A stretch of DNA of 63,058 nt, counting the filler, from Folioceros fuciformis (taxonomy: Eukaryota): NCBI GenBank assembly GCA_049999805.1. It is 6 parts of 6 records of this genome, joined end to end, with 100 filler letters (N's around TTAATTAATTAA, not from the genome) between each part and the next. Parts side by side here need not be neighbours in the genome. Positions count along the whole stretch, not along the records: positions 1 to 13,410 come from JBNGIO010005478.1; 5 more parts are not named here. One strand, written 5' to 3'. This document shows positions 1 to 61,621 of the stretch, piece after piece. How positions within the stretch are numbered: the stretch's first letter is position 1; every line of letters starts with the position of its first letter. The notes beneath the pieces were generated by a model. That model was not told where the DNA came from and did no database searches. It saw only the letters and a program-made list of their open reading frames with translations. A program made the position numbers and the translations under genes.

Positions 1-153
1 ACAACCATAAGTGGTTGTAACCAATATGTAATTATAACCATAAAGTAGTTGTAACTAATAACTACCTAAGAGCAACTACTTGTGCCCTAGCATTTATTCA
101 TTAAATGTTAGAGCCCTAGTGAATAGTGCCCTAGAAGGTCATACGTTTCATCA
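1..153 (-). repeat. 3' LTR of copia 1 (partial)
   Basis: Aligns without gaps to 6856-7008 with 10 mismatches counted by eye; ends ...TTTCATCA; a purine-rich tract on the minus strand lies next to it. Confidence 0.9.
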
Positions 154-605
154 CTCCCGCTTGCTATGGGATAGGGGTGAAATATAGCTTCTCAACAAGT
201 CTACTTAAGCTCATAGACTCCCACTAGAAACCTAAGTACTAGCAAAGGAAAAAGTAATTTAAATAACAACTTCAAAGCTTAAGTTGATTTAAGCAACCAC
301 AAAATAAGAGCATGCCCTTTTTGTATGTATAAGCGGGGTATATACATTAGTTATGCATCGCATGCTCCTCCTCGTTCATGCGTAAAGCTTGCGAGGAAAA
401 CAGCCTCATCTTCAGCTATGGTGATGGAGGGAGACCAGCACCTGTGCATGAGATCATGGATGAAGAACACCAGCATGTGCACCCAGCATGGACACGACAC
501 ACGTGCGCACCTCACACTCGGCTTGCACGTGCGCATGTGTAGTAGGAGGTGCCGCGCTGAAAAATTTCATGTCCCCCATGCTCCTGTAGCAACCATTTTC
601 GCAAT

Positions 606-1353
606 TTGTGCCTTGGATCTATGTGGGTAAGGTTCCTCGTAAGGGCGTTCTCCTCTAATGGACAAAAAGGGGGCGCCTCCACTCTTGGTCTAGATATCCA
701 TGTGCATCTTCCAAATTCCTCACTAAATTCGAACCCTAATGGATTGAAATGGAGTGAAGCTACTATGCATGAACCTATTGCCGATGTGGAAAGGGATGGG
801 GAGTGAGCGCCTTAGCCTTATGATGCCGATGCAAACATGTTTGTAAAGAATCCCTTTGTTGTTGATCTTAGGTTGCTCCAAGCTGATGCCCAAATTCTCA
901 AGAATGAAGTTGAGGTCTTAAAAGAAAGTGAGCGATTGAATTGGAGCTACCTGTGTCTTTTGATACATTTTCACTAATTTTTTAATAAACATAATGCTTG
1001 CTGTAGATGGAAAAGAAAATGAGGAAAAGGATGCCCCAATGCAGGGTGTGCCCCCGTTACTGGCCACAATGAACTTAAATCACAAGGAGTCACACTTGAT
1101 CTGGATTTCATCATCGTAGTCTTGTCGACCAGAATGGCATGATGACGATACTGGTATATACATCTCCAATAATTTGCTTGCTCAAATAAAAATAGCCAAT
1201 CCACAAGTTCCTAAAATCTGTGAGGGAAGTCCCTCATGGAGGTCGAGGACCCTGAGAAAATCCAATGCTGGGAGAAAGCATATTGAAGAGCTTAGCCTAT
1301 ATGCTATTAGTAAGTGCCTCTCTCAGCCTCTTATACCTCCTCTACTTTTGTAA
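606..1353 (+). pseudogene. Degenerate spliced antisense ORF inside the 3' region of copia 1
   Basis: GT..AG intron 928-1006 with a CTAAT-like branch point joins two frames in phase 1; only three internal stops (TGA, TAG, TAG) in over 200 codons. Confidence 0.45.
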
Positions 1354-1789
1354 AGGTTCCTATTGCATTCGCTAATAGGGAGTTTTGATAAATTAGCTTA
1401 TGAGGGGAGGATAAGTGGATTGGAGGACAACGAGGTGTGTGGCCCATGTAAAGGAAATGAGAAATTGGAAAGTAGTAAGTTAGACAAACAATTTTGAAAA
1501 AAAAAAGGCATTTAGCTAAGGCCATTATGCATGTCCTAACCTATGTTATATGGTGACCATGTGCAGTGAGGTGCATAGACACAAAAGTGACACTTGCAAT
1601 ACCATGAAGGCAATACATTAGTAGGAAGGAAAAATATGACGTCCCGGATGGTTTGATGCTCGTGCGTAGCTTAGATAAGCCAATTTACCTGGTGTGTCCC
1701 GGAGGGGTTGAACATGGTTATACCCCAGAGGAGTCTGTATGCGAGGAAACCGACATACACATGGTGTGGATAGGATGTGAACTTTACCA

Positions 1790-4700
1790 TGAGATAGGAG
1801 CTCCTCCTAGCAGTAGAACATAGCATGATACGGATTATCGGGGTTGCTCGCATAGTCATCATCAGCAAATGTTGTTAGAGTTAATTTTGATATGTCGGGT
1901 GTCTACTTATACATGAGTCCTATAAGCATAGTTCCCTTAAGATACCTGAATATATGCTTAACACATTGCCAATGTTATCTTCCGGGGTTCTCAAGAAACT
2001 ATGAAATTGAGCTAACTTCAAAAGATATGTTTGGTCTTGTGAAGTTTCTTAAGTATATTAAAGTGCCGATAGCATGTTTATAAGGCATTGTTGACACTTC
2101 ATCCTTCTCGGCTTTTGTCTTGGGGCTCATCTTTGAAGTGAGCCTTGTGCCACTAGGAAAAGGTATAGCAGCAAGTTTTGCACCCTAAGTTTTGCTAAAC
2201 TTTCTGTTATATATTTAGTTTGAACTAAGCTGATAGATTTATTATGTCTATCCCTTAGGATATTAACACCAAGGGCATAGGTCAACTCTCCTAAGTTTGT
2301 CATCTAGTAATGACTTCTTAACCATGCTTTAATTTCAGCTAAAGGGAGAGTGAGGATGTTACTAAAAATAAATCATTAACATAGAGTAAGAGGCAAAGGA
2401 TGTTATTTCCTGATCATAATACATACATGCTTGCGTTAGCTTTGCTTTGCACAAAACCATAGTTGATGAGTTTGTCATATATGTCCTTGTTCCATTCCTT
2501 TCCTAATTGCTCAAGGCCATAAAGACCTTTGATTAGTAGTCTATATACCACATCTTCTTTGCCTTTGACTTCATAACCCTTGGGTTGTCTCATGTATATC
2601 TCTTCTTGAATACATCCATGCACATAAGCAGTTTTGACATCTATCATATGAAGATGTAAATCATGTTGAGTAGTCAAGGCAATTACCATTCTTAAAGAGG
2701 CAAATTCTGCTACTAGAGCATATGTAGCCCATGGTATGTAATCTAGACTAGGTATGTGGGTGAATCCTCTGGCTACTAGTCTTGCCTTATATCTTTCAAT
2801 GGAGCTATCACCTTTACGTTTAATTTTGAATACCTATTTACTCCCAACTATTTTTCTTCCTTTTGGTGGTTTAACTTATTCCCATGTGGAGTCTTTAACT
2901 AGGGAGTCATACTCAAAGTCCACTGTGGCTTTCCATAAGTCTTTCTAGGAGAGGAAAATGCTTGTTTTAATGTTATTGGTTTGTCAGATATCAGCAATAG
3001 CCTTGTAAACAACTTGGTGGAAATGAGAGAAAGGTGATATAGGGTCATCAAAGGTAGTAAGGTATCCCAAGGGTGGTTCCTTCCATCCTGCATGCCCAGA
3101 CATAGCGGGTCTGGGTCTTAGGTTGTACATCTTCGTTGATGACTAGTTCTTGAATGTTAACTTCTTCTTTAAGAGATGGCTCGTATACAGAAGTAATTGG
3201 CTCATCTTCAACCAAATATTCAAGCTCGTAAGATTCATTGTTCGGGTCATAAGGAAGATCTTCAAGATGTTGAGGAATTTTCATATCTGGATATGGAGTC
3301 GTAGGTTGTATTGGAGAAGGTGGCTCCTCCTCCTTTTGTAGTATAGGTGCAACCAAAGGAAGGAAAGGGGTGTGTAGAGTAATGAATTAGTTACCATCAA
3401 AATCCGAAGGTTGGCTATTGTCATCAAGAATGAAAGCAGGGGAGTCCACTGAAGAGAAGAGTATGGGAGACTCATGAAAGACATCGATCCGAGCGTATAT
3501 GAGTCTCGTAGTAATGGGATCAAATAATTTGTATCCTTTAATGCCTTTAATGTAGCTAAATATATAAATGTATACTTGGCGGCCTTATCATCTAATTTCT
3601 TGCGCCATGCCTTAGGGATAAAAAACATGAGTAGTATAGCCAAAAACTCGAAGATGGTCGATAGAAGGCTTTTGCAAATAAATGATTCATAAGGTGTCAT
3701 ACTTTTTGCAACAGAAGTTGGTATTCGATTAATGAGATATGTTATTGTTTGCATGACTTTGGCCCAATAAGTTTTGGGTAATTTAGCTTGGGAGAGCAAG
3801 CAACTAGTAATCTCTTGAAGGCATAAATTTTTATTATTTGCTATGCCATTTTGTTGAAGGGTATGCACAATTGTAAGTTGTTGAGCTATACCTTTAGCTT
3901 GACAAAATGCAACAAAAGTATTGTATGTGAACTCTCCTCCATTGTCAAACCGGAGGGTCTTGAGTTTCTTGTCCGTAAGTCTCTTTGCCTACAACATGTA
4001 ATCCTTGAATACTGAAAGGCTTGACTTTTGTATTGAGGGATGTATGTTGTAGTGAAGTGGGATAAGTCATCTATGAAAGTATTTGCAACCACTAAAGGAA
4101 GGTGCAAAGATTGGGCCACAAATGTTTGTATGAACTAACTCTAAAGGGGAATAGGCCCGCTATGGAGAGTTGTTGTGAAAAGGAGCTTGGTGTTGTTTGG
4201 TGAGGACACAAGCCTCACACCAAGAGAGAGGTTCTATCTTTGATAGGGTGGGTTTCTATGAAGATTTCCCTTAAACATTTGTATAAGTTTTTGGCTATGA
4301 GGATGTCCTAAACGACAATGCCAAAGAATGGTGTTGGAGGATGAGGAAGTAGAATTTTGTGAATCTACATGTATGGTATGTAAGGGTCCCACTTAGGCAG
4401 ACCGGTTGTCATCTAGTGTGCCATAGCAGATAGTATGTGTCTTATTTGTGAGATATGAAATATGACAACTATCTACGTGGAGAGTGACTTGCATGCTATG
4501 TTTTGAAGATAAACTAGCGGCAAACACTAAGGTTTTGCACATGGATGGTACATGAAGGACTTGAGAAAGAGAAAGAGTTTGGCATGAGGAACATCTCAAC
4601 ACAACTGAATCTATGCCTACTATGGGAAGGTTGTGATCATCTCCCAAGAGGACATGCTAATGTCCTATGACTGGAGTGTAAGACTCAAAAGAGTGTTTGT

Positions 4701-5871
4701 TGTGGCATATATAAGATGTGGCTCCACTGTCCATATATAAGAAGTGGCTTGTTGATTTAGTTGATGTAAATCAGATAGTTAGGGCCGATGGTGTGGTTAA
4801 AGATTGTTTCTTAACAGCAACATGTGCTCTAAGTGCGACCTCCTTTTTAGGCTCACCGTTCTTCTTTTTCTTGCAATCCTTCTCCATGTGTTTAGGAATT
4901 TTGCATTAATTACATATTACTCCAATCTCCTTGTTACCTCTTGCAAGTGTTGAAGAAGGTGAAGATTCTAAATGCGGAGGATTTGGATTCAAGTGAGGGG
5001 TGTAAGGTCCTTTCCCTCAGCCTCAGCCTCAGCCTCAACCTCAACCTCGACCTCTACCTCTGCCTCTTCCAATGAACATCACTTACTGCCTAGTGGAACG
5101 TGTGTCATGACGACGGCTTGAATCCCCATGTATTATGGCTCATCTTAATTCATTTAAGCTAATATCCAGCATTGAGGAGCTAGCGGCTGCTATTTACTTC
5201 TTAGCATTATGAAGGACCACATTTTGTTTGGTCACAAAAAGCCTTGTAGGAAGGTGGATAAGAGATTAATAAATGCATTCTTCTCGGAGATCTTTTCGCC
5301 ATATGCTGCTTCGAGATTATTTTTGGCCAATCTAAAAGCATTGATATGGCTCTCAATGGAATCGTTTTCTCTCATCGTGAGATTTTGGAAATTTTGAATG
5401 GCCGNNNNNNNNNNNNNNNNNNNNNNNNNNNNNNNNNNNNNNNNNNNNNNNNNNNNNNNNNNNNNNNNNNNNNNNNNNNNNNNNNNNNNNNNNNNNNNNN
5501 NNNNCGTTGGAGGCATATATTTGAGCAAGACATTCCCACATTTCCTTGGAGGTTTCTGCTTCAGGGACTTGTCGAACCATTGATTCGGTAAGTCCACTTA
5601 TGATGATAACTTGAGCCTTCTAATCCTTAATGTCCCACTCTCCTTGAGTATCCTTATTCCAGAGAGGGCGATCAATATCACCCACCGCTAACAATATCTC
5701 ATAAGTCACGTTGCCGCAGTACTCCTTTGGCACGTAATTGCCAAACATTATATCCTTTTCCATTAAATATGCCTTTCTCCTTGAAGCCTTCTCCGTGAAC
5801 CACAATCGTATGTGAGTCATGTTTCTTCTTCCACTTGACTTCTCATTTGCCTCTTTCTTGTGCAAAGCCAT
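1790..5871 (-). pseudogene. gag-pol of copia 1, fragmented
   Basis: ORF fragments 5620-5871, 5232-5597, 4393-4647, 3886-4119, 3281-3868 and 2414-2689 carry copia gag, protease, integrase and RT motifs. Confidence 0.9.
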
Positions 5872-6749
5872 TGTTTAAGCTTTTCAACGTCAGCGCTTGA
5901 ATTTGTAACCTTGTTAATTACTTGCTCCTCATACATTGTAAGTGACATTTAATGAAGGATGCTAGATCGTGCTTGGTGCGATGTTCTCTTGATAAACTTA
6001 GGAGTAACGCGTGAGCACATATTGCACTTCTTCATTGTTTTGTTGCAAATATTTGCATTACCAGACAGAAGGTTAGGAGTATCAACATCTACACTAGTCA
6101 ATTTCTCAACACTTCTAGAGTTTAGATGTATCTCTTGGGTGAGGTACTTCAATCTTTCATTAGTTGAAGTATGGATTTGGATCATTTCTTATCTGATTGA
6201 GTTGAGTAATTACTCCAATCTATCTGGGTTAGGAAAGAAAGTTTTAGTCTTTGTGTTGATGAATGGAGAGGTATTGAGTTTGCAGTCTCTCCATTCATCA
6301 CACAAAGACTAGAACTTACCTAGAGTTTACTCAAACCTAATTGATGGTGGAGAGCAAAGTTCTTGTAGCAAGTATAATGGACTTTACTCTGTGTCTAGAC
6401 TTGGAGAGAAGAGCAGATATGAGGTTACAAATATGGACTTCAAGCATATCATGTTCAATAGGGGAGTGAAGATCAAAGTCCTCTGATGCAACATTTGTGA
6501 AGTCCCTTTGTTGCCTTCTCTTTCTCAAGGTTTGAACTTTTCTTCTTCTACCTTGTTTGCTAGAATTTGGAGAATCCTTGGTGAGCAAACAGAAGGTGGA
6601 TGCACAAACCGCGCATCCTTAGAGCAATTAATGCTACACTTGATTGCTGCCCAAGATTATGTCTCCATGATGCATGGTTCACAATAAAATAAAGCTAGAG
6701 TAGAATTAGGCAAAAGAGAGTGTAGTGTTGCAACATAAAGGGCTATGGT

Positions 6750-6761
6750 GCTTTGATACTA
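6750..6761 (-). promoter_or_regulatory. Primer binding site (tRNA-iMet type), degenerate
   Basis: GCTTTGATACTA versus canonical reverse complement GCTCTGATACCA, directly against the LTR. Confidence 0.75.
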
Positions 6762-7008
6762 TGATGAGAATCAATAGCTCTTAGACATAAAGTGCTAGAA
6801 TACAATGGAATGAATGAAAGTAAAAATTACAAGCCTATTTAAAGGCTATATCTTTACAACCATAAGTGGTTGTAACCAATATGTAGTTATAACCATAAAG
6901 TAGTTAAAATTAATAACTACCTAAGAGAAACTACTTGTGCCCTAACATTTAATCATTAAATGCTAGAGCCCTAGTGAATAGTGCCCTAGGAGGTCATACA
7001 TTTCATCA
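6762..7008 (-). repeat. 5' LTR of copia 1 (247 bp, TGATGA...TCATCA termini)
   Basis: Terminal inverted repeat TGATGA/TCATCA; abuts the primer binding site. Confidence 0.9.
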
Positions 7009-7601
7009 TGAGGCTCATGAATTGGGCAGCTCGAGGAGAAGTGTCAATTGCGATGACATTTCGCAAGCATTTTGCTATTGCTACCATCCCAGACCCAAGC
7101 CCTGCATACCTATAAAGAAACTTATCGCCCTCCACCATGAACAACTCAACCAATTTTTTAAGGAGTTGCATAGGCTTCTGATATGGCTACACCATTGGTC
7201 ATCTGTAGTCTTGTAGCACAACTTGTCCTCCACCGCCTTCTATGAGAAACACAATGTAATTGTCCCCCAACGCCCTCAAAACCATCACACTATTTTGGCA
7301 GTCAACGAAAATTGATGTGGCACATAGTCCTTGATGGATGTCCCTATTGCCACAATCCAAAAGTAACCACCATGATATACTTTATTAACAGGTTTCACAT
7401 TGGTCGTATGCCAGTAGTGACAAGCATGATTATGTGTTGTCGCTTAGATGCATGCAAATAGTAATTAGTTAATAATTAAGTGATGCTAATGAATAACATT
7501 AGTGATAATTAATAACTATTTAGTGAAGATGATGAGAAAGTATAATATAATATAAAGCCAACTAGATACACACCTAGATGTATGGATGTGGTTGCAGCAG
7601 G
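7009..7601 (-). pseudogene. Relic of a beta-class N4-cytosine/N6-adenine DNA methyltransferase-like gene (C-terminal half)
   Basis: Minus strand reads PYQKPMQLLKKLVELFMVEGDKFLYRYAGLGSGMVAIAKCLRNVIAIDTS, matching the N6_N4_Mtase pattern PxQKPxxLLxxLI..GDxxLDxFxGxGS..RxxIxxD/E. Phase-1 GT-AG intron at 7573-7443; stops and one frameshift upstream of PYQKP. Confidence 0.65.
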
Positions 7602-7943
7602 TCTAGAAGCCTAGCTGAGCGGTGTCCACTGTAGTTGTAAGCTTGTATTCTCTTGCTTTCTGGGAATAGGCTTTCTCTTGATGGTAAAAGGAATAGGAGG
7701 TAGGATAAACAGTTATTAAATAGCCAGCATTATTTCCATAATTAATTAGGCTATAACATGAACGAACCGACGGATATGAATCACCGTGATTCATACCGTC
7801 GTAACGAAACGGCAACCGCCACACGTCACGGGACACTCCCAACGGTCGTGTCCACCCGCACATCTTTTAAGCGGCCTCACGGGCACGCCATAATTCATTC
7901 ATTCCTTTTATGCAATCTATCTGCCATCGATCCTAGTTCTAGA
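7602..7943 (+). repeat. Putative 5' LTR of copia 2 (TCTAGAA...TTCTAGA termini)
   Basis: 7-bp terminal inverted repeat; right end abuts the primer binding site; left end coincides with the break in the methyltransferase exon; partner LTR not in window. Confidence 0.6.
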
Positions 7944-7955
7944 TGGTATCAGAGC
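7944..7955 (+). promoter_or_regulatory. Primer binding site, tRNA-iMet
   Basis: Exact TGGTATCAGAGC. Confidence 0.92.
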
Positions 7956-8149
7956 ATAGGCATGGACTCCGCCGCGTCGCCCGCTGACAAATGCAAGATC
8001 TGCAAGAGCAATTCCTGCATCAGAAATCTCAAGCATGAAGATTTTCGATCCCTGATTGCAGCATTAAAAATTGTCTTGAGCAGATTTGGCGACATGGCGA
8101 GTACCTTCTTGGCAGATGCTGTGTACCACTACTACAGCTGAAGATTGCA

Positions 8150-8848
8150 ATGCCGAGGTGCCGTGGGAGCAGGAATAAGGCGCATTCTGGCTGGTCTGCA
8201 CAACAATCCTCCAAGAAATCTGTGGGAAGACCACAAACACACCTGGATCAATTCCTGAATGACACATTCTTGCCTGGCTGTGAGCACAAAGCAAGGAGCA
8301 CACAAGTAAAGGAAGAAGGTGCGGTGTTTGATCGATTCCCACAATGTGAGGAGTGTGTCTTTGAAGTCAGAGACGGCCGCTGGGATTACCGCTGCATTCC
8401 CGCACCATTTAACCCACAGCACCCAAAATCTGCTGAGATTCCTGCACTAGCAAACCTTAGAACTTGTGTTAGTAGAAAAATTCCCTACGCACAATCTGTA
8501 GCTAGTCATGAAAAAAACCTAGTATGCAGTCAATGTTCTAACATAGGCCACTTTCCTACATCTAGTGAACATCTGCTAGCAGGAATCCAAGATCTTCCCA
8601 TTGCACAGACCGACAAACTTCATTCAGCCTTAGAGGTCATTACAAATGACATAGTAGACCTCAGGAGGTCTATCCTACAGGTATCTCAGCAACTTGCTAA
8701 TTTGTCATACAAACTTAGCAAACCAGATGAGCAACCCAAACAACATTACCCAACATTGGACTTCCTAAAAATGGCAGCTGTGCTGAAGGATGCTGTGACC
8801 AGTATGGAACCAAGCTGCACTAGGGTTGCAGCACCTCTGGATGCCTGA
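8150..8848 (+). CDS. Extra ORF upstream of gag in copia 2 (232 aa, Cys motifs plus a coiled-coil-like segment)
   Basis: Open frame between the primer binding site and gag; CEEC, CSQCSNIGH and a heptad-like LEVITNDIVDLRRSILQVSQQLANL. Confidence 0.45.
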   Translation: MPRCRGSRNKAHSGWSAQQSSKKSVGRPQTHLDQFLNDTFLPGCEHKARSTQVKEEGAVFDRFPQCEECVFEVRDGRWDYRCIPAPFNPQHPKSAEIPALANLRTCVSRKIPYAQSVASHEKNLVCSQCSNIGHFPTSSEHLLAGIQDLPIAQTDKLHSALEVITNDIVDLRRSILQVSQQLANLSYKLSKPDEQPKQHYPTLDFLKMAAVLKDAVTSMEPSCTRVAAPLDA

Positions 8849-8870
8849 ATCTTATGAATGACACCTGTCC

Positions 8871-10217
8871 ATGTCATACAGAAATTGGCGCAACAGAATT
8901 CCATTGCGCAAGACACCTAAGAGGCCTAATCAGGATCCTTCTTTGCTACCACTAGCAGTAGATCCTTTAGGACTTGCACACCAACCTGCTCAGTCAGCAG
9001 CATCGGTGGGGAGTACCAATGTTGTACCTGCAAATTTACTAGCAGCACAATTAGCTCATGTAGCACAGGCTGTTTTCATACCTCAGCAAACACAAGTAGG
9101 ACAGGTGACCCAAGCTGCCAGTGCAGCACTAGCAGCACAACTAATCACAACATTTAGCACAATGGGTACTCCACAAAATATCACCAACAACACAACTGTG
9201 AATAACATTAAAATAGACTTTAAGGAAAAAGACAGATTTACAGGTTCACAGTTTGACATATGGTCTCTACGAGTTCAGACCATCCTGAAAGAGCATGATT
9301 TATGGGAGGTTGTTGATGGAACCTCTGTAAAACCTGCAGCAGGTTCACCACCTGCTGACATTGCAACATGGGTTAAGAAGGACTTACGAGCATTGGGAGT
9401 TATTCAGTCCGCGCTTGATGGGATGATGATGCATCACACGAGAGATGCAGCATCAACAAAGGCCGTCTGGGACTCTCTTTCTCAAGTATACCAGGTTGTG
9501 AATGGTACATCCTTGGTTTGTGCAACCCGGGACTTCTACAACTGCAAAATGCGAGAAGGTGAATCAGTCGAGCAGCACGTCATTAAGTTTAGGCAACTAA
9601 GGTCAAAACTTACCTCAAGTGGCACCACCACTACTGAGATGCAGGCCGCTGTGGCTCTACTGTTGTCACTTCCTGAAAGCTATCGAACATTCGTTAGCAA
9701 TTACAGCACATCTCTTCGTCAAATAGGACTGGCCACACCAGCAGGCCAGCTTCCTCTTGTTACACTATCTGACCTCATTGGTGCTCTTCTTGAAGAAGAG
9801 TCTACTAGGCATACAAGCAAGGGTGGTTCTCACAAGGGAGACCACATTAATAGGGTCCTTTACACTAAAGGCCCTCGGAGGCAACCTCCACGACAAGCTT
9901 GGCCTGCTAGTAGCAGCAGTGGTAACACTAAGAAGAAACCAAGTGCTGCCACCACTAAGAAAAAAGGCACCTGCAACTGGTGCTTGATTCCTGGACATTG
10001 GGAAGCTGAGTGTAGAAAGAAAAAGGCTGGAGAGCCTAAAAGGACTGCACCTCCTGAAACCAATGTGGTACTTCGAAAAACCAACACCATACTTGCAGTC
10101 TGCCTTGTCTCATCTGTATCAGATAAGCACATCTGGTTCTTAGACTCCGGAGCCTCTGCACATATTTGTCATACAAAGGATTCCTTTGACAACTATAGAC
10201 CAGTGCAACCTAGATAG
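8871..10217 (+). CDS. Copia Gag plus protease N-terminus (ends at a premature TAG)
   Basis: FTGSQFDIWSLRVQTILKEHDLWEVVDG, CCHC knuckle, WFLDSGAS; frame continues SVKLGDD after the TAG. Confidence 0.9.
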   Translation: MSYRNWRNRIPLRKTPKRPNQDPSLLPLAVDPLGLAHQPAQSAASVGSTNVVPANLLAAQLAHVAQAVFIPQQTQVGQVTQAASAALAAQLITTFSTMGTPQNITNNTTVNNIKIDFKEKDRFTGSQFDIWSLRVQTILKEHDLWEVVDGTSVKPAAGSPPADIATWVKKDLRALGVIQSALDGMMMHHTRDAASTKAVWDSLSQVYQVVNGTSLVCATRDFYNCKMREGESVEQHVIKFRQLRSKLTSSGTTTTEMQAAVALLLSLPESYRTFVSNYSTSLRQIGLATPAGQLPLVTLSDLIGALLEEESTRHTSKGGSHKGDHINRVLYTKGPRRQPPRQAWPASSSSGNTKKKPSAATTKKKGTCNWCLIPGHWEAECRKKKAGEPKRTAPPETNVVLRKTNTILAVCLVSSVSDKHIWFLDSGASAHICHTKDSFDNYRPVQPR

Positions 10218-13200
10218 TCAGTCAAGCTGGGGGATGACAGAGGTCTTACCATAGAAGGAGTCGGTACAGTTCCAGTTGTCCTTGCAGATAAGACAACTAT
10301 CCATCTTAGTGATGTGTTACATGTGCCTGACATGGCAAAGAATCTAGTGTCTATACGTAGGTTCACAGCTCAACATCCTCTTGACATCTCGTTCAGTAGA
10401 GATGAATGTCACATTACTGATCCACGGTTGGGAGACAAAGTAGTTGCAGTTGGTACCCCACTGCATGACCTGTACAAGGTCAACTTTACCTCCAAGTTTG
10501 GCACACGTCCTGCAAGAGCACATGTGCATGTCATGTCAGTCAAGAGGAGAAACAACAGCAGCAGGCCATGCTATGGCNNNNNNNNNNNNNNNNNNNNNNN
10601 NNNNNNNNNNNNNNNNNNNNNNNNNNNNNNNNNNNNNNNNNNNNNNNNNNNNNNNNNNNNNNNNNNNNNNNNNNNNNTGCCGCCTGGCTCATGTCAACTT
10701 TGACAAACTAAAAACTATGGTGGCCAGTAACAATTTGTATAGAGAAAAATTTATGCTCAAGTTTGCAGACAAGCAGTTCTGCGAATCATGTGTCTTCGGC
10801 AAACACAAGAGGCTACCCTATGCTGATAAGAATCCTACAAGAGCAACTAAGTTGCTGGAGCTCGTAAATACTGACCTATGTGGCCCCATGTCCACAGCCA
10901 CCTTTGGAGGTGCACTCTATATTCTGTCCTTTTTAGATGACTGGAGCCGCTATGTGGTAGTATACCTGCTCAAACACAAAAGCCAAGCCTTGAGCCGCTT
11001 CCAGGAGTACGTTCCCTATGCACAAAGACAAACAGGCCAACTAATTAAGTGCCTTCGCAGTGATGGAGGAGGTGAGTTCTGTTCAAATGCTTTTGAGGAA
11101 TACTGTAAGGACCTGGGGATAAGCAGACAATACACTGTACCTTACACATCTTCTCAAAACCCTCTTGCCGAGTTGAACAATAGACACCTTCAAGAAGCTG
11201 CTAAGTCTTTGCTTCAGTTTTCTGGTTTATCACGGGGTTACTGGGGTGAGGCAGTTGTAACAGCTGCATATGTCAGAAATAGGCTACCCACAAAAGCCTT
11301 TGAGGGTGCCACTCCATATCAGAGATGGACTAATCATAGACCAAGGATCAATCATCTGAGGATCTTCGGGTCGCCTGCGTATGCACACCTTGCAGAAAAA
11401 CAACGCAGGAAGTTAGATTACAAATCCCGTAAGTATGTGTTTATTGGTTACACAGAAGGAATTAAAGGGTATAAATTATATGACCCAGTGTCTAGAACCA
11501 CCACACATGCTAGGAGTGTAATCTTTAATGAGCAGCTGCTGTTACATCCACCTACAGCCAATGCACCTCAGCAGAACCCTACCTCAGACCAAGCTGATGA
11601 GCCTCATGACATCACCTTAGAAACTGGAACTATGTCTACATCTCAAACTTGTGCACAGCAGCAACAGATTAGAGTACCCCAGTCCTCTACACCATCATCC
11701 AGTCAGGCCCCACACCCATCTATGGATACTGACCTCTCAGATGATGATGACGAGCCAAGTGTGTTCCCTGACAATGATAGTGAAGGGGAGGAGCCAGTCT
11801 CCTTTGAATCTGTGCACAATGCAAGTGATGGTGAGGAAGATCAGCCACATACAGAAACAGCAGCAGCAGAAAGTGCACCTGAACCTGAACTTAGAAGGAG
11901 CAGCCGAGTGCATACCTCTTCTCCAGCTGAGTGGAAGGAGCCACCACTTACATACAAAAGCTTTCTAGTCCAAGAGGATGCTGATCCCATGGATGCAGGA
12001 GACCCTCAGTCCTACCAAGAGGCTCTAAATTCACCAGATAAAGAAAAATGGAAGGAGGCCATAGAGTCTGAGTATGAATCTATTATGGAAAAACAAAACG
12101 TGGGTTCTTGAGGATCTCCCTGCAGGAAGGAAGGCTGTGACATGCAAATGGGTCTTCAAGACCAAGTTGGGAGCGGATGGGTCCATAGCCCGATACAAAG
12201 CAAGACTTGTAGCACGTGGCTACAGTCAGGTAGAAGGGCTAGATTACACAGAAACTTTCTCTCCAGTGGTGAGGGCCACATCTGTCCGTGCATTGCTGGC
12301 CTTGGCTGCTCAAAATGATTTCCTGTTACAGCACATGGATGTTAAAACCGCATTCCTGAACGGAAAATTAGAAGAAACAATTTATATGAAGCAACCAGAG
12401 GGTTATGTGGATCCTAAACATCCACAGAAAGTCTGTAGACTTATTAAAACTATCTATGGACTGAAGCAGTCCCCAAGAGAGTGGTATAAACGTATTGATG
12501 CCTATCTCAAGCAATGTGGCTTTGCACAAAGCGAAGCGGATTCAAATGTTTATAAACTACATGACAAGGACGGTGTAGTATACCTGGCCCTGTACATTGA
12601 TGATGCGATCATCATGGCCAGTAGCCCAAAGCACATGGCAACAGTGAAAGGGTTTCTGACCTCTGAATTCTCTATGACAGATTTGGGCCAGCTAACATTC
12701 TTTCTTGGCATACAGATCCAGCAGAACCTTCCTGCACACACAATAGCCAATGGCATTCCTGCAAAGCCAGTGGCCACACCTATGGCTGTTGGAGATAAAC
12801 TGACTCTTGCACAATGTCCAAAGACCGAAAAAGAAAGGCAGAAGATGGAATCCATACCGTACAGACAGGCAGTGGGAGTTTGCATATATTTCAGGAACTG
12901 GACACGTCCAGAGCTGTCACATGCTGTTGGGGTTGCATCCCAATTCTTGTCAAACTATGGTTCTGCCCACTGGCACGCTGTACAGCGGATACTTAGATAT
13001 CTTGGTACCAAACCAAGATTAGGTATGCTATATGCTAAGAGACCAGAAAGACTGCTACTTACCTGCTACTGTGACGCTGACTGGGCAGCGGACACTGATA
13101 GCAGAAGATCTATCTCAGCACATTGCCTTATGCTAGGCAAAGATGAATACCAGTCAACAGTCATAGCCTGGCACTCAAAGAAGCAGCAAGTGGTAGCACT

Positions 13201-13336
13201 CTCCTCTACTGAGGCTGAGTACATAGCCACTACAACGGCTGCCCAAGATATCCTCCACTGCCGAGAGCTGTTGGCATCACTAGGGGAGACACAATCTGCC
13301 CCAACACCACTACTCAGCGATAACCAATCAGCCATC
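10218..13336 (+). pseudogene. Copia pol (protease C-term, integrase, RT, RNase H), frameshifted near 12090 with an internal RT deletion
   Basis: ORFs 10444-12111 and 12074-13342 overlap in different frames and carry integrase and RT/RNase H motifs. Confidence 0.92.
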
Positions 13337-13410
13337 TGTTAAGCATGATTAACGTTGATATTTATTAGTGCTAATCCAGCTTATTGAGTTTGTACTAATT
13401 AGTGGTAAGA
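13337..13410 (+). mobile_element. Start of a different LTR inserted into copia 2 RNase H
   Basis: Begins TGTTAAGCA; closely matches the reverse complement of the right end of solo LTR 28876-29267. Confidence 0.85.
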
Positions 13411-13510
13411 NNNNNNNNNNNNNNNNNNNNNNNNNNNNNNNNNNNNNNNNNNNNTTAATTAATTAANNNNNNNNNNNNNNNNNNNNNNNNNNNNNNNNNN
13501 NNNNNNNNNN
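13411..13510. other. Artificial contig linker
   Basis: 44N + TTAATTAATTAA (six-frame stop) + 44N. Confidence 0.97.
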
Positions 13511-15145
13511 CTTCTCCCGCACTCTCGCACCATAGCGAAGGTCCCGAGCCAGTCCTTCAACCTGCGAGGTTACTTCCACGAGAGGTTACCCCACTCGCTT
13601 AGCTAACTAACTAAGGGAGAAACAGAGCAGGCCAGGCACGCAACCTCGCGCACCTGAAAGCGCTTTTTCACGACGTCGAGTGGGTGGCACAACAATTTCG
13701 CCACAGTTCCTGCGGCTAGCCCGCAGCAAAAATGCTCCAGCGTCGATAGCTCAGCCGAGTCGCTCGCACCAGGCCTCTCTTTGTTCCGCTCCTGCAAAGA
13801 GGAGAAGGCACGGTTCAGGCAGGAAAATAAATTTTGCCTTTCTGGGCAAGGGGTGGGAGGGGACCGTACACCAAGGATGTCACAACTCACAGAGGTCCAG
13901 CGTTTTAAAATGTCATAAGCGCCGAATTGAATCCCAGCGTAGGGAACGATCTCCACTAACGACGGTGTCAAGCCCGCGTACAGGCCTGTCCATCCCTTTG
14001 CCCGAACAATGCTTCTAGAGGCAGACCTGAGATTAGGGTAAACCTGCACCAGACGGTGTTGTTATTAAAATTTGAACAATCCACTGCGGATTTCCTTCAC
14101 CCACCTGTGAAAACAGGGGAAGACAAATAGAACCCACTTTAGGCTCCCCTTGTGATGCTAGGATGGTGCGCAAAAGGTCAAATGGGTAGGAACCGATGGT
14201 GGCTGCACATCCAGCTAAAGATCCACCGGCAAACGACATGGCAGGGCCGAGCTTTGCGATCTCATCTGATGTCAAGACAGGGCAGGTTGTTAGAGAAGGG
14301 AGAGCCTGTCTGCCAGGACCACGGTTAGCACCAGAATCATGCCCAACTGGCCACGGGTGGAAAGCCAAGCCAAGCCAAGCTAAGTTCTGCATCTGCGGCT
14401 GAATCCCGAATGTAGCAGGATGTCCATTAAATCAGGGACAAATCTGAACCTCAAAAAACCTTGTCTCTGCTGCAACGAGAGGTTTCCAGAATGCTGCTGG
14501 AGAGGCCAACCTCCCTTGCTGGAGCCAGCAACAATGGCCTTAAAATTTTGCAAAACCACAAATTGAATTGCTGTGTACGGCATCACCAACATCAGAGCTG
14601 GCAAATTCCCCCTCCACAATCCCTGATCCATACACCACACGCGCATCAGACCAGAGCTCCCAACACATCTGCAAGAACGGGCAGGAGGGGGGACACCGGC
14701 ACGCACACGAATCCCTTCCTCCCGCACGATGTCCCGTGCAGCCTGGACGATGCCGGTGTACTTGGACACTCCAGAGAATCCAGCCGGTCCCCCGTGCCTC
14801 GTTGTGGGCTCGAGCTGGACCTGGACCGAGCACCCGACGGAAGTCAGTCCCAATTCCCAATCCCAACGCGCTCGCGCTCCCTCAGATCTCAATTGTTGGT
14901 GCCAGACTCACCTGGAATCGGATCTTGATCACGTCCAGGGGCGATACCACAGTCCGGGCAGCTGCCCCTGCCACGGCCCCCGCCACAGCATCCACGACCG
15001 CTCTTCGATACACGTGCCCGTACTGCTGCTGCTGTTGCACGTGGCCGGCGCTCTGCCCATCCGCTGCGCCATGGCCCATGCCCCCAGCTCCGCTTCCCAG
15101 CCTGCTTCCGCTGCGACTGCCATGTTCTACGATCATGGGCGCCAA
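13511..15145 (-). CDS. TPC: Mitochondrial thiamine diphosphate carrier (SLC25 family), 3' end cut by linker
   Basis: Exons 15145-14912, 14820-14707, 14622-14511, 14265-14138, 14043-13891, ~13791-13654 and ~13561-13511 with GT-AG introns. Three carrier signatures: [36 protein letters not shown]. Start Met uncertain. Confidence 0.9.
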
Positions 15146-21691: not shown

Positions 21692-23228
21692 TCAACTTCG
21701 TCGAGACCTTGCTGTACACGTTTTTTCAAACACAACCGCAACGCAGCTGCAAGTTTTACACACAACCAAATACCAGTTGAGAACAAGTTCATAAAAGCAT
21801 GTAGTATAGATAAACTGATGCACAAAGATGCATGTCCAGATGACAATGTTTAGTGCTTGTACCTTGAATGCTCTCAATCTCTTTCCCTAGTTTGTTTGAA
21901 GCAAACCCTTCCATAATAGTGTCCACCCTGCTTTGTATGAGGTAGGGGTCCTGGTCTCGAGCCAATTGCAACTCCGGTTGATGTATAAAAGAAGATACAA
22001 TACCTTGAGGTCGTTCCATATTGGAAAATCTCCTCGGAGGTGGCTGAGATGCATAGGCCATGTAGATTAATTCTCCTCTTGGTCCTAGAGGTGGCTGAGA
22101 TGCATAAGCCATGTAGCATAATTCTCCTCCTTGCCCCAAAGGTGGCTGAGATGCATAAGCCATGTAGCATGATGCTCCTCCTGGCCCCAAAGGTGGCTGG
22201 TTGCTTGATGCTCCTCNNNNNNNNNNAGGTGGCTGGTTGCTTGATGCTCCTCCTGGCCCCAAAGGTGGCTGGTAGCTTGATGCTCCTCCTGGCCCCAAAG
22301 GTGGCTGGTAGCTTGATACTCCTCCTGGCCCCAAAGGTGGCTGGTAGCTTGATGCTCCTCCTGGCTCCAAAGGCGGCTGAGATGCATACACCATGTAGCT
22401 TGATGCTCCTCCTGGCCTCAAAGGTGGCTGGTAGCTTGATGCTCCTCCTGGCCTCAAAGGTGGCTGGTAGCTTGATGCTCCTCCTAGCCCCAAAGGTGGC
22501 TGAGATGCATACGCCATGTAGCTTGATGCTCCTCTTGGCCCCAAAGGTGGCTGGTAGCTTGATGCTCCTCCTGGCCCCAAAGCTGGCTGAGATGCATACG
22601 CCATGTGGCTTGATGCTCCTCTTGGCCCCAAAGCTGGCTGAGGTGCATACGCCATGTGGCTTAATGCTGCTCCTGGCCCCAAAGGTGGCTGGTAGCTTGA
22701 TGCTCCTCCTAGCCCCAAAGGTGGCTGAGATGCATACGCCATGTGGCTTGATGCTCCTCCTGGCCCCGGAGGTGGCTGAGATGCATAAGCCATATGGCTG
22801 GATGCTCCTCCTGACCTCAAAGGTGGCTGAGATGCATAAGCCATGTGGCTGGATGCTCCTCCTAGCCCCAAAGGTGGCTGAGATGCATACGCCATGTGGC
22901 TTGATGCTCCTCCTGGCCCCGGAGGTGGCTGAGATGCATAATCCATATAGCTTGATGCTCCTCCTGGCCCCGGAGGTGGCTGAGATGCATAAGCCATGTA
23001 GCTTGATGCTCCTCCTGGCCCTGGAGGTGGCTGAGATGCATAAGCCATGTAGCTTGATTCTTCTCTTGGGAATCTCTGAAATGGTTGGTGCAAGGTATGT
23101 GCCATAGAAAGCCTATGACTTGGTTCTCCATGTGGAACCCTTGGAAGGGACGATTCCTTACTTGGTTCCTTACTTGGTTCTTTACTTGGAACCTTTGGAC
23201 AATCTGCTTTAAGACTTTGAGGCTTCAT
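21692..23228 (-). CDS. Low-complexity tandem-repeat protein (G/A/S/Y/Q/P-rich), putative
   Basis: 479-aa ORF built of 16-aa (GASSYMAYASQPPLGP) and 10-aa (GASSYQPPLG) units; a phase-1 intron 21862-21712 leads to a short last exon ARSRRS*. Confidence 0.45.
22038..23058. repeat. Compound minisatellite of 48-bp and 30-bp units
   Basis: Recurring GGTGGCTGAGATGCAT..CCATGT.GCTTGATGCTCCTCCTGGCCCCAAA and GGTGGCTGGTAGCTTGATGCTCCTCCTGGCCCCAAA. Confidence 0.95.
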
Positions 23229-23301
23229 TTCCTAGCTTGCTTTGAGCCTTGATGTCCTTGAGTTGAACAAAATTCCTATACCTTTTTATCTTTTATTCTG
23301 T

Positions 23302-23529: not shown

Positions 23530-23629
23530 NNNNNNNNNNNNNNNNNNNNNNNNNNNNNNNNNNNNNNNNNNNNTTAATTAATTAANNNNNNNNNNNNNNN
23601 NNNNNNNNNNNNNNNNNNNNNNNNNNNNN
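23530..23629. other. Artificial contig linker
   Basis: 44N + TTAATTAATTAA + 44N. Confidence 0.97.
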
Positions 23630-26489: not shown

Positions 26490-28194
26490 GTTTTCTCACC
26501 GGGTTTGGAGGAGTTGCTGTACATAGTGCATGCTGCTGGCATTGAGCCGAATTCTACCCTTCTAAAACCAAAAGCGTGGATTCTGACCTTCTAAGACGAA
26601 AAGTGTAATTGACCCAATCAAAACTGAGTGCTATCTGCTATCTCCTCTCAACACCCTACAAAAGTGGATTGGTCACCTTCTAAAACCAAAAGCCTATTTT
26701 AGCTCATCAATCCACCCTTTATCAACTGCCTATGTTCCACCTCACTGTCTTTTTCTTCTTACACACAACTTCCTCCAATCCAACATATTGTTTCAATCTG
26801 TTTGTGCCCTCATTCTCAACAAAAGTTTCCAACACTTGTTTCCGTTGAGGTTCTTCGTCTGCTCGTGCCACTAACTGTCTCACCTTCTGTTGAGTTTGCT
26901 CCATAATGCAAGCTATCCCAAAAGCTAAATCTAAATGCTCAAATGCGGTATCACGTACTTCAGTACATGCCGTTTTAATAAAATCCAACCGTTTTTCTTT
27001 TGCCATCTCCAATTGTGTCTTACATATTGGTGCCACCAAGGGGTTACTAGGCAACACAATGTGTGGAGCTTCTTGATCCTTCATCCAAAAAGCCATAGCC
27101 AAGTTGTTGGTATCACTACTTTCAGCAACATACGCTCCATTTGTTCTTCCATTTTGCCTAGCTGCTGCTCATCCTTGTATATGCCAAGGAGTTGTTGAAC
27201 GTTCACCACATGCTTGTAGATGAAACCTTTGTTCTCCATTGGACATGAGCATGTAGCGCAAAGAGACTAAACATGTTCAATCACATACCACAAGTTAGAG
27301 GTCGATGAAGACAAACAATGTGCAGCAACATTTTCGGCATGCGGTAAAATAACTGAGCTAATAGGAATAGTTTCTGTACCCTTCATAGTGGTTTCCTCCA
27401 AAGCCTCCACCTTCTTGTAATGCCTGTATCCCCCTTCTTTCATGAAGTGCTGCACTAATAATGTCGGGTAACCACATTCACTAATTGGTGTAGTAACCAG
27501 TCTAGTCTACGGCCAGACAAACTTGACTTGCTAAATGCTGCACGTTCTTTTATAAATCTATGGAATCCTTCCACAGCTGAAGTTGTATGTTGCCCTACAT
27601 GAGGTAACATTCTAGCATTACACAACCACATATCTATATATGAAGGTCCCCATTGGACCTTCATATATCTCACAAAGTCTCCTTCCCTTGTACCCCACTT
27701 GTCATAAAAATTGTGTAGTATACTTCTTCCTATGGAAACACACTGTGAAGATGTGCTTGCCCCAGTAACATACATAATATCCCCTAGCTCTGCCCATATT
27801 GAAATTCGATTACTTTGTGAGTGCACTTTTTTCAATAAATTCCATCTCCACGCTTTCCGCACATGCCACAAGCATAATAATATAGGCATATTATGATTCC
27901 ACACAGGGCGAATAGCAGAAATCTCTGTCTGACAATCATCAACAAGGAATGAACTAGGTGTCCAATCCTTGTTGATCTTTTTAATCTTTTCCTGTAAAGC
28001 TGAAAGCCACCTCACAAGTGACTCAGTACTAGCATCTTTTGTAATAGCCCATGCTATTGGAACACCGTTCAAGTAATGGTTAAAACCCATCGCAATGAAT
28101 AAGTGGTAGCGATACCTGTTCAACCCAAAAGTTGCATCCATATCTAGCACATTACCATTCTCATAAAATAACATGCAATTTAACATAAAAGGAG

Positions 28195-28234
28195 TTTGGG
28201 TTTAGGGTTTAAACCCCTAAACCCTAAACCCAAA
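28195..28234. repeat. Inverted (head-to-head) plant telomere repeats
   Basis: TTTGGG TTTAGGG TTT AAACCCCT AAACCCT AAACCC AAA. Confidence 0.85.
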
Positions 28235-36736: not shown

Positions 36737-36836
36737 NNNNNNNNNNNNNNNNNNNNNNNNNNNNNNNNNNNNNNNNNNNNTTAATTAATTAANNNNNNNN
36801 NNNNNNNNNNNNNNNNNNNNNNNNNNNNNNNNNNNN
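36737..36836. other. Artificial contig linker
   Basis: 44N + TTAATTAATTAA + 44N. Confidence 0.97.
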
Positions 36837-49114: not shown

Positions 49115-49214
49115 NNNNNNNNNNNNNNNNNNNNNNNNNNNNNNNNNNNNNNNNNNNNTTAATTAATTAANNNNNNNNNNNNNNNNNNNNNNNNNNNNNN
49201 NNNNNNNNNNNNNN
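49115..49214. other. Artificial contig linker
   Basis: 44N + TTAATTAATTAA + 44N. Confidence 0.97.
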
Positions 49215-61521: not shown

Positions 61522-61621
61522 NNNNNNNNNNNNNNNNNNNNNNNNNNNNNNNNNNNNNNNNNNNNTTAATTAATTAANNNNNNNNNNNNNNNNNNNNNNN
61601 NNNNNNNNNNNNNNNNNNNNN
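61522..61621. other. Artificial contig linker
   Basis: 44N + TTAATTAATTAA + 44N. Confidence 0.97.

Follow-up and report, generated by a model that had tools for sequence, protein, structure and literature searches.

The question raised by this locus is whether the DNA between positions 7009 and 7601 of the analysed window (63,058 nucleotides of Folioceros fuciformis, filler included) contains the remains of a domesticated, intron-bearing DNA methyltransferase gene cut by two copia insertions, as it was suggested by the original prediction. We found that there is indeed a methyltransferase relic, although it is of smaller size and tells less than had been proposed: it is confined to minus strand positions 7420-7009, corresponding to about 138 residues of the C-terminal portion of a beta-class (Pfam N6_N4_Mtase) domain. 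Very probably this segment is a non-functional, single-copy pseudogene fragment holding the C-terminal 60% or so of a permuted beta-class N6_N4_Mtase-type methyltransferase domain.

The relic and its flanking elements

The peptides quoted earlier can indeed be read on the minus strand. An open reading frame of 66 amino acids at 7186-6986 opens with PYQKP, and the frame opening at 7443 continues through WHTTNV as far as KAVEDKLCYKTTDD. When the relatives described below were aligned with the whole 63-kb window by tblastn, E values of 4.7e-17 to 3.6e-12 were obtained at 7195-6992, and a second, collinear segment extended from 7428 or 7413 down to about 7201; the relic corresponds roughly to residues 164-303 of the relative P0003. 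As judged from these alignments, the resemblance is far beyond chance. The same comparison, together with the translation, confirmed the claimed frameshift at about 7205-7195 and revealed four in-frame stops. Three of these are located in the upstream segment (7287-7285, 7278-7276 and 7242-7240), and the further one (7189-7187) replaces the Ser which stands before PYQKP in the relatives. With four stops and one frameshift this copy is dead, in agreement with the original prediction. Even in the best-kept segment the SAM-binding motif I is degenerate: PYQKP is followed by Y-R-Y-A-G-L-G-S-G, where the conserved Asp has been substituted and a Ser has become Leu.

The relic is flanked by two copia elements, as previously stated, and the domain order, the LTRs and the tRNA-Met primer binding site (PBS) of the flanking elements are those of Ty1/copia. 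Element 1 has a minus-strand orientation, with RVT_2 at 2414-2833 and gag at 5232-5597; the gag match is weak, and so is that of rve. Its RVT_2 domain was found by scanning single open reading frames, while a read-through of 1000 amino acids from 1-3000 gave no Pfam match. Element 2, on the plus strand, has gag, integrase and RVT_2 domains and an exact PBS, and its source contig ends at 13410. The copia reverse transcriptase has its nearest clusters in Streptophyta, and the relic is in physical continuity with copia LTRs. At the 3' side the relic is cut off by the LTR of element 1 at 7008/7009, and this junction is bridged, since a contig of 826 bases (6625-7450, depth 9.3 in two DNA runs) matches it without a single difference. 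The claim of an exact truncation at LTR ends on both sides could consequently be maintained only for 7008/7009, where the bridging contig and a TG...CA LTR are found, but it is doubtful for 7601/7602, where another genomic copy joins 7557 to 7621. The coordinates are collected in Table 1.

Table 1. Positions of the relic, its parts and the neighbouring repeats along the window
Feature	Positions	Strand	Evidence
Part of 3' LTR, copia element 1	1-153	-	93% identical to 6856-7008; cut by window start
PBS-like site, copia element 1	6750-6761	-	2 mismatches to tRNA-Met PBS
5' LTR, degenerate copia element 1	6762-7008	-	TGATGA...TCATCA ends; LTR pair; bridging contig
Very probable pseudogene fragment of a beta-class methyltransferase-like gene	7009-7420	-	tblastn; depth 9.3; bridging contig 6625-7450
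Best-kept segment: PYQKP block, degenerate SAM-binding motif I (AGLGSG), then RNVxxxD strand	7010-7186	-	PF01555, 2zie_A, relatives
Frameshift and stop zone	7187-7205	-	tblastn with relatives, translation
Upstream segment in a separate frame, WHTTNV to AVEDKLCYKTTD	7201-7428	-	tblastn, translation
High-copy repeat bounding the relic on its 5' side; contains proposed intron and exon 1	7421-7601		Depth 350-600; loose ends; joints in other copies
LTR sequence, copia element 2, directly 5' of PBS	7602-7943	+	TCTAGAA...TTCTAGA ends at 7602 and 7943
Exact tRNA-Met PBS, copia element 2	7944-7955	+	PBS match
gag, integrase, reverse transcriptase, copia element 2	8862-13342	+	Retrotran_gag_2, rve, RVT_2

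Family assignment and predicted fold

A search of 1.84 billion protein representatives connected the relic to a small unnamed family of six proteins (P0002-P0005, P0007 and P0008) at E 1e-3 or better, of which P0002-P0005 share 45-55% identity with it (E 1.4e-10 to 3.4e-7). All six come from raw-read assemblies only and are intact or partial, and none of the matches to the relic family bears any name. On its own the relic open reading frame reached 20.4 bits against PF01555 (E 5.4e-4, profile positions 163-216 of 221), which is under the gathering threshold of 26.7 bits, whereas P0002-P0005 scored 56.4, 30.0, 54.5 and 50.1 bits, so that all four relatives tested passed. The HMMER comparison succeeded for the relatives, with the relic alone staying under the threshold; the assignment of the relic to PF01555 is one of transitive homology. 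Its own best sequence match among the proteins of the PDB is TTHA0409 (2zie_A, E 2.1e-4). The profile of the family matched eleven sequences of solved structures, each of them a beta-class DNA amino-methyltransferase, the alignment being confined to about the last 60 residues, and the best ten language-model clusters with an assigned family all belong to PF01555.

The N-terminal halves of the relatives behaved differently: by the family profile, hhalign and phmmer no sequence similarity to solved methyltransferases was found in them. Only 56 columns of the family could be aligned with P0009 by hhalign, and phmmer with P0008 returned only spurious matches (designed armadillo repeats). P0002-P0005 contain no second Pfam domain over the cut-off, and some relatives carry low-complexity C-terminal tails. 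A word-index search for longer proteins with the 66-residue open reading frame gave seven candidates, none of which scored. When prokaryotic genomes were searched by pattern, 48 matches were obtained; three of them are distant matches of bacterial MAG origin, with 32-55% identity over 29-76 residues.

Support for the whole domain was provided by the AlphaFold model of the intact relative P0005 (pLDDT 60, pTM 0.66). In Foldseek this model matched the beta-class enzymes with E values of 2e-11 to 7e-8, among them M.BceJIV, CcrM, MboIIA, M1.HpyAVI, RsrI, PvuII, TTHA0409 and the N4CMT of A. vaga. VIA-align, over residues of about 42-320, gave Z scores of 16-19 for beta-class enzymes, those with CcrM, M.BceJIV, RsrI and PvuII being 17-19 over nearly complete chains, and 12-13 for METTL3 and MTA1; the top 20 fold matches are all permuted DNA amino-methyltransferases. 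The permuted order, in which the region of motif IV precedes motif I within a single Rossmann-like fold, is seen in the P0005 model and not in the relic, which keeps only the C-terminal part.

The origin from a beta-class N6_N4_Mtase-type gene, as originally predicted, is supported by the PF01555 scores of the relatives, the matches to solved structures and the fold. As far as sequence likeness can tell, the parent gene is a member of a very rare, unnamed methylase-like family. This family is patchily distributed and so far undescribed, and it is probably of eukaryotic origin.

The upstream repeat and alternative origins

The other half of the original prediction concerned the region upstream of the relic, where a GT-AG intron (7573-7443) and a preceding exon (7600-7574) had been proposed. 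The summed contig depth is 9.3 at 7008-7415, 350-600 at 7416-7568 and 39-61 at 7569-7619, the values referring to assembled contigs from two runs of one sample, which is possibly the source sample of the window assembly; accordingly, 7421-7619 is present at about 4 to 60 times the single-copy depth. At 7421/7422 five to nine contigs per run have loose ends with unrelated flanks. The start of the repeat unit is probably at 7421, which is 22 bases within the proposed exon 2, because the depth jump coincides with these contig breaks. Other genomic copies show a joint that links 7557 with 7621 across 7601/7602, its shorter side having 61 letters, and another one from 7470 to 7629. Probably 7421-7601 belongs to the LTR of copia element 2, as its outer portion. 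The LTR start at 7602 is based on the TCTAGA ends only, which match as an inverted repeat automatically because they are palindromes, and it could not be fixed by comparing one LTR with the other, since the window contains no second copy of this LTR or of the 7421-7601 repeat. MITE-like terminal inverted repeats around 7421-7601 were also sought; only short AT-rich pairs were seen, none of them convincing.

An intron can be recognized by homology on both of its sides or by spliced RNA, and here no relative aligns upstream of 7428 in tblastn. None of the three relatives bearing the upstream residues (P0003, P0005 and P0008) gave a segment with E < 0.1 in 7429-8000. The proposed intron and first exon lie in high-copy repeat DNA, and for this reason the intron is no evidence of eukaryotic domestication.

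These data bear directly on the explanation from which we started, namely a horizontally acquired, domesticated 4mC/6mA writer gene with a phase-1 intron, cut exactly at 7008 and 7602 by the ends of copia LTRs. The GT and AG dinucleotides do occur at the proposed sites, the spliced SIHL/A loosely resembles, by eye, the SILMA of P0003, the open reading frames of P0002 and P0004 begin near the splice position, and the TCTAGAA...TTCTAGA ends abut the PBS. Nevertheless, we consider this explanation quite improbable, given that a repeat terminus falls inside its second exon, that the N-terminal residues of the relatives find no counterpart there, that the joint of another copy runs across the proposed LTR start, whose supporting ends are palindromic, and that the relatives have no (D/S)PPY. 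Alternatively, the relic might belong to a multi-copy mobile element, as a methyltransferase borne by a transposon or a virus and not a host gene. Its surroundings consist entirely of transposable elements, the feature-based clusters closest to P0005 are for the most part phage methyltransferases, and the patchy, rare occurrence of the family would also fit. However, 7008-7415 is at single-copy depth in both runs (9.3 and 9.2, at a likeness of at least 90%), tblastn detected no other copy of the relic in the 63-kb window, and neither the 116 pattern matches in viral contigs nor the 138 in metagenome contigs included a relative. No longer, fused form of the family was scored among 7998 candidates, which is weak evidence. 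The carriage by a larger transposon, raised as a possibility in the original prediction, is therefore left without support, and we regard a mobile origin as unlikely.

Far less probable still is that the peptide stems from one of the ordinary Rossmann methyltransferases of RNA or protein (TRM5/Trm11/RsmD/HemK-like). Weak Pfam and NCBIfam matches to TRM5-TYW2 (E 0.021 for the relic, 0.0025-0.04 for the relatives) and to a HemK-related family (E 0.11) point in this direction, but they are far under the cut-offs, whereas PF01555 was passed by the relatives and the profile and fold matches were uniformly permuted DNA amino-methyltransferases; moreover, the bacterial-type proteins P0001, P0006 and P0009 have an HPTQKP-type block before motif I. 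A best match of the Trm11/RsmD type, which would have spoken against the original prediction, was looked for and did not appear. It is hardly credible that the relic is an artefact, be it a chance open reading frame, bacterial contamination or mis-assembly. This draft assembly contains N gaps, and separate contigs are chained together in the window; against this stand E values of 1e-10 to 1e-17 and the bridging contig, which links relic and copia LTR at equal depth in the two runs, these being from one sample and hence not independent.

A decayed single-copy fragment remains the preferred reading, and its history is very probably the following. The relic starts at the conserved Trp-x-x-T-N-V strand, continues across an insert that is lineage-specific, and then takes in the PYQKP block, the SAM-binding motif I and the next strand. 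Its 3' end was lost through the insertion of the copia element with the LTR ending at 7008, and its 5' half, the expected site of the catalytic loop, was removed or displaced by the high-copy repeat. What was left has decayed, acquiring its stops and frameshift and losing the Asp of motif I, and it has no present-day function.

Possible function and comparison with known systems

What the intact relatives do has to be judged from their motifs. Their motif I, preceded by PYQKP, reads D-G-C/Y-A/S-G-S/A-G-S-T/G, with G272, G274 and S275 of P0003 invariant among them. At the position of motif IV all three relatives with an N-terminal half (P0003, P0005 and P0008) have DLPR(G) in the context LDLPRG, so the catalytic (D/S/N)-P-P-(Y/F/W) was found in none of them, and the relic lacks this region. 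In a MAFFT alignment of seven sequences LDLPRG is paired with TDPPYF of P0009, a canonical enzyme, and in the P0005 model DLPR comes immediately after a confidently modelled strand (residues 83-89). From this alignment and this middling model, with its low-confidence loop beyond residue 90, DLPR may be the equivalent of motif IV, the N-terminal halves having no sequence similarity to solved methyltransferases. The prediction of a 4mC/6mA writer is undermined, since DLPR(G), and not DPPY, SPPY or TSPPY, is located where (D/S)PPY belongs. We somewhat favour the view that intact members bind SAM, the classical N6-adenine or N4-cytosine DNA methylation having been lost (as in a pseudo-enzyme or a partner subunit of the METTL14 kind) or altered; that they are putative active writers of DNA 6mA or 4mC is rather doubtful. 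There is also a small chance that they form an undescribed streptophyte family of beta-class fold, acquired from bacteria or phages independently of DN4MT1 and N4CMT, whose expressed members either write 6mA/4mC on DNA by means of a D-L-P-R catalytic loop without precedent or act as non-catalytic SAM-binding regulators of DNA or RNA methylation.

Few eukaryotic members of the bacterial N6/N4 amino-methyltransferase type are described in sources including PMC8885841, which name a 6mA enzyme from early fungi besides the bdelloid N4CMT and DN4MT1 of Marchantia. Each such enzyme altered the views on the DNA marks that eukaryotes can use. The window adds no working enzyme to them; it provides physical proof that such a gene was once present in a copia-rich nuclear genome of plant type, and it leads to six unnamed relatives. 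If these are plant genes, their DLPR loop could be a new catalytic solution, a sign of a new substrate or the mark of a pseudo-enzyme; the proposed intron, being repeat, is unusable as evidence of domestication. Literature searches yielded no paper on a plant PF01555 family with DLPR, and the supplementary phylogenies and sequence lists of the DN4MT1 and N4CMT studies may bear on this point.

Compared to the bacterial and phage beta-class enzymes (M.BceJIV, CcrM, MboIIA, M1.HpyAVI and M.RsrI, which are N6-adenine enzymes, the N4-cytosine enzyme M.PvuII, and TTHA0409), the intact relatives share the predicted whole-domain fold, an arrangement in which the SAM-binding half follows the catalytic one, the xPxQKP block and the GxGS(T/G) of motif I. 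They differ from these enzymes in having DLPR(G) for (D/S)PPY (three of three), D-G-C/Y for D-P-F in motif I, and an insert, about 50-70 residues long, that separates the W-x-K-T-N-V strand from PYQKP; the relic differs further as a dead fragment in a eukaryotic setting rich in transposable elements.

Among eukaryotic proteins, DN4MT1a/b of Marchantia polymorpha belongs, as the relic family probably does, to the plant lineage, and like that family it is akin to prokaryotic beta-class amino-methyltransferases. According to its description it has TSPPY and clusters with prokaryotic N4C enzymes (bioRxiv 10.1101/2021.02.12.428880), and in this published motif it differs from the DLPR-bearing family. 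The catalytic motif of the bdelloid N4CMT is SPPY, the change of which to APPA abolishes the activity, as reported in PMC8885841. N4CMT (8s9m, 8s9n, 8s9o), a permuted eukaryotic N6_N4_Mtase, matches the P0005 model with Z 16.1-16.2 and is among the sequence matches of the family profile (E 2.5e-6); in contrast to the relic family it has SPPY in place of DLPR, and a C-terminal chromodomain, for which P0002-P0005 gave no Pfam match at E 1 or better. The MT-A70 clade (METTL3/METTL14 and the ciliate MTA1/MTA9) has a related permuted fold, with Z scores clearly under those of the PF01555 enzymes, and P0002-P0005 show no MT-A70 Pfam match; there is also no DPPW. This clade includes non-catalytic partners with a degenerate motif IV, METTL14 (EPPL) and MTA9, which may offer a functional analogy for a protein with DLPR.

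Descent and decay of the relic

It was recognized that the minus-strand methyltransferase-like fragment (the relic) descends from a gene of the permuted DNA-amino-methyltransferase type, since the relatives' PF01555 scores, the structure-profile matches, the feature-based clusters and a predicted fold all lead there. The quoted peptides are present in the sequence, and the 66-aa minus-strand ORF at 7186-6986 begins with PYQKP. Compared alone with Pfam N6_N4_Mtase (PF01555) this ORF stayed under the cut-off (E 5.4e-4; 20.4 against 26.7 bits; profile positions 163-216 of 221), whereas all four relatives tested passed. It also matched the putative modification methylase TTHA0409 (2zie_A; E 2.1e-4) and, far under the model's cut-off, an NCBIfam DNA methyltransferase subfamily (E 0.0013); the remaining three ORF pieces matched no family.

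With the relic ORF as query, a word-index search brought up no proteins of greater length; HMMER, run exhaustively over 1.84 billion representatives, detected six at E <=1e-3. P0002-P0005 (185-446 aa) share 45-55% identity with the ORF (E 1.4e-10 to 3.4e-7) and also match the upstream peptides of the original prediction; P0001 and P0006 are canonical bacterial-type enzymes. In P0001 (1598 aa) a long N-terminal region is followed by canonical DPPF-type N6_N4 methyltransferase domains, three in tandem, and this repetition alone made it top-scoring. A profile search (seven matches among 8000 candidates scored) added P0007 (C-terminal part) and P0008 (N-terminal part), the sole other match being P0009, a canonical TDPPY enzyme. 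P0002-P0005 are singleton clusters known solely from public read-set assemblies and none is named, which holds likewise for P0007 and P0008.

All 11 solved structures matched by the family profile, with just the last ~60 residues aligned, are beta-class DNA amino-methyltransferases, namely TTHA0409, A. vaga N4CMT, M1.HpyAVI, M.BceJIV, RsrI, MboIIA and CcrM, and PF01555 is present in each of the best ten feature-based clusters that have a family. The AlphaFold model of P0005, a middling one from a 7-sequence alignment (pLDDT 60.3, pTM 0.66), has a core matching CcrM, M1.HpyAVI, MboIIA, RsrI, M.BceJIV, N4CMT, TTHA0409 and PvuII (Foldseek E 2e-11 to 7e-8), and VIA-align gave Z 16-19 over residues ~42-320 and near-whole target chains. 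The MT-A70 clade (METTL3, MTA1) fitted less well, at Z 12-13. A Trm11-, RsmD- or HemK-like origin was rejected, such families matching far below cut-offs only.

With the relatives as tblastn queries, two collinear homologous pieces were detected in different frames, switching near 7205-7195, where the predicted frameshift is borne out. The upstream frame holds stops at 7287-7285, 7278-7276 and 7242-7240; a further stop at 7189-7187 stands opposite a residue that is Ser in 5/5 relatives covering the site. Motif I has another residue for its conserved Asp and reads G-L-G for G-S-G. Through these stops, the frameshift and the motif I damage the copy is dead, as had been proposed, and it is a fragment without any function. 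No further family fragments were found elsewhere in the window (tblastn, E <0.1).

Boundaries and surroundings

On the 3' side the LTR boundary 7008/7009 holds, and homology to the relatives reaches the last codon before it (FMSL). The neighbouring copia element 1 is decayed and lies on the minus strand, with a PBS-like site (two mismatches) directly after its 5' LTR. Bases 1-153 of the window are 93% identical to 6856-7008, which, at a plant substitution rate of ~1.3e-8 per site per year, would roughly place the insertion a few million years back.

For the 5' side, contigs from two DNA runs (both from a single sample and study, possibly the assembly's own source) were placed on 6600-8100. A contig at depth 9.3 spans 6625-7450 with zero differences. 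At 7421/7422, 5-9 contigs per run end, and flank agreement is 0.54-0.63, no better than expected of unrelated sequences; these breaks and the depth jump indicate that a high-copy repeat has its terminus at 7421, 22 bases within the proposed second exon. The AT-rich stretch 7421-7568 stands at ~40-60x single-copy depth, above both the LTR beside it (115-467) and the interior of the copia element (42-109). The proposed GT-AG intron (7573-7443) lies within this repeat DNA and has no support beyond its GT and AG dinucleotides; the first exon (7600-7574) is likewise repetitive. The three relatives holding the corresponding upstream residues gave no alignment in 7429-8000 at E <0.1.

Copia element 2, on the plus strand, is real. 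The exact LTR boundary claimed at 7601/7602, which rests on palindromic TCTAGA-type ends, is doubtful, since other genomic copies are joined across it: 7557 to 7621 (shorter side 61 letters) and 7470 to 7629 (shorter side 23 letters), both spanning 7602. Given these joints, the start of the repeat unit, which is probably this element's LTR, is most likely at 7421; the window holds no second copy of it. Within this LTR a perfect 10-nt palindromic pair, TATGAATCAC / GTGATTCATA, with 1 nt between, lies at 7775-7795. As a whole, the original prediction stands for the methyltransferase relic, the frameshift and one LTR boundary; its intron and first exon, and the exact position of its other LTR boundary, are not supported.

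The window is no continuous piece of genome but a string of draft contigs, with five spacers (44 N, TTAATTAATTAA, 44 N) between them at 13411-13510, 23530-23629, 36737-36836, 49115-49214 and 61522-61621; features are not readable across these or across the 100-N scaffold gaps and 10-N gaps inside the pieces. The relic is on the first piece (1-13410). The clusters closest to the copia reverse transcriptase are Streptophyta, which hints at a plant or streptophyte alga as the source. A long tandem array at 22011-23116, with interleaved 51-nt and 36-nt periods (60-100% identity), can be read through in several frames, on either strand (ORFs 21789-23231, 21874-23112, 21989-23107), and has no Pfam match. 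The long ORFs 33150-34220 and 35703-36788 on either side of a ROCO-type ORF also gave no Pfam match. An inverted repeat (41804-43032 / 43904-45045) has arms of ~1.2 kb, ~80% identical and ~0.9 kb apart.

Features of the window, with summed contig depth around the 5' boundary
Feature	Coordinates	Strand	Remark
Copia element 1 RVT_2	2414-2833	-	plus weak integrase and gag matches
Copia element 1 5' LTR	7008 down to 6762	-	TG...CA ends
Relic downstream piece	7195 to ~6992	-	tblastn of relatives, other frame
Relic upstream piece	7428/7413 to ~7201	-	tblastn of relatives, one frame
Contig depth	7008-7415		9.2-9.3
Contig depth	7416-7568		350-600
Contig depth	7569-7619		39-61
Contig depth	7620-7772		115-467
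Copia element 2 tRNA-Met PBS	7944-7955		exact
Copia element 2 gag, integrase, RVT_2	8862-13342	+
Mitochondrial carrier	13603-14061	-	host-type gene piece, another contig
MULE transposase domain ORF	27455-28201	-	E 3e-13
ROCO-type protein ORF	34211-35569	+	452 aa, uninterrupted; Roc GTPase and COR-A domains
RCC1 repeats	38953-39879	-	host-type gene piece, another contig
GT47 exostosin-type glycosyltransferase	52120-53205	-	host-type gene piece, another contig

Distribution and proposed catalytic motif of the family

Carriage by a larger transposon, which had been suggested, has no support: in the contigs of the two DNA runs the relic occurs once at >=90% likeness, and a search for fused long forms of the family gave none, the latter being weak evidence. 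No relatives were found in viral or metagenome contigs, and prokaryotic genomes gave just three distant bacterial matches. A horizontal origin would be plausible from the distribution of the fold family. Bacterial 4mC methyltransferases are described as having been acquired independently by Marchantia and Adineta, and a prokaryotic 6mA enzyme is described in early-branching fungi (2025, PMC12344493). Among the papers listed by full-text searches none describes a plant PF01555 family with a DLPR loop; supplements may have wider taxon lists.

P0003, P0005 and P0008, the only relatives with the N-terminal half, all read L-D-L-P-R-G-L behind a hydrophobic strand. MAFFT sets this DLPR stretch opposite T-D-P-P-Y-F of P0009, and in the P0005 model it comes after a confident strand (83-89), with a strand-short helix-strand pattern upstream that looks like what normally precedes motif IV. 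We infer from the alignment and the model that DLPR may be equivalent to motif IV; the sequence methods (family profile against solved structures, hhalign against P0009, phmmer of P0008) did not confirm it. If this is right, neither the aromatic residue nor the first Pro of (D/S/N)PP(Y/F/W) would be present in the family. SAM binding by the relatives seems plausible, because their motif I is well conserved.

What gives the relic value is that it points to a methyltransferase-fold branch of the beta class, very rare and unnamed, that is probably eukaryotic and has a putatively non-canonical catalytic loop; the interest would become high only should intact members turn out to be expressed plant genes acting on DNA. 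The relatives are of the PF01555 fold type, yet, with motif IV placed as proposed, they would fail a defining feature of active amino-methyltransferases. The proposal of a 4mC/6mA writer would accordingly be disfavoured only as far as this placement goes, 3/3 N-terminal-bearing relatives having DLPR and not (D/S)PPY, which bears on a refuting test that the original prediction itself had set. In rotifer N4CMT, changing SPPY to APPA kills the activity (PMC8885841), and Marchantia DN4MT1 has TSPPY (bioRxiv 10.1101/2021.02.12.428880); by the motifs these sources give, the family described here, with DLPR, is not like either writer.
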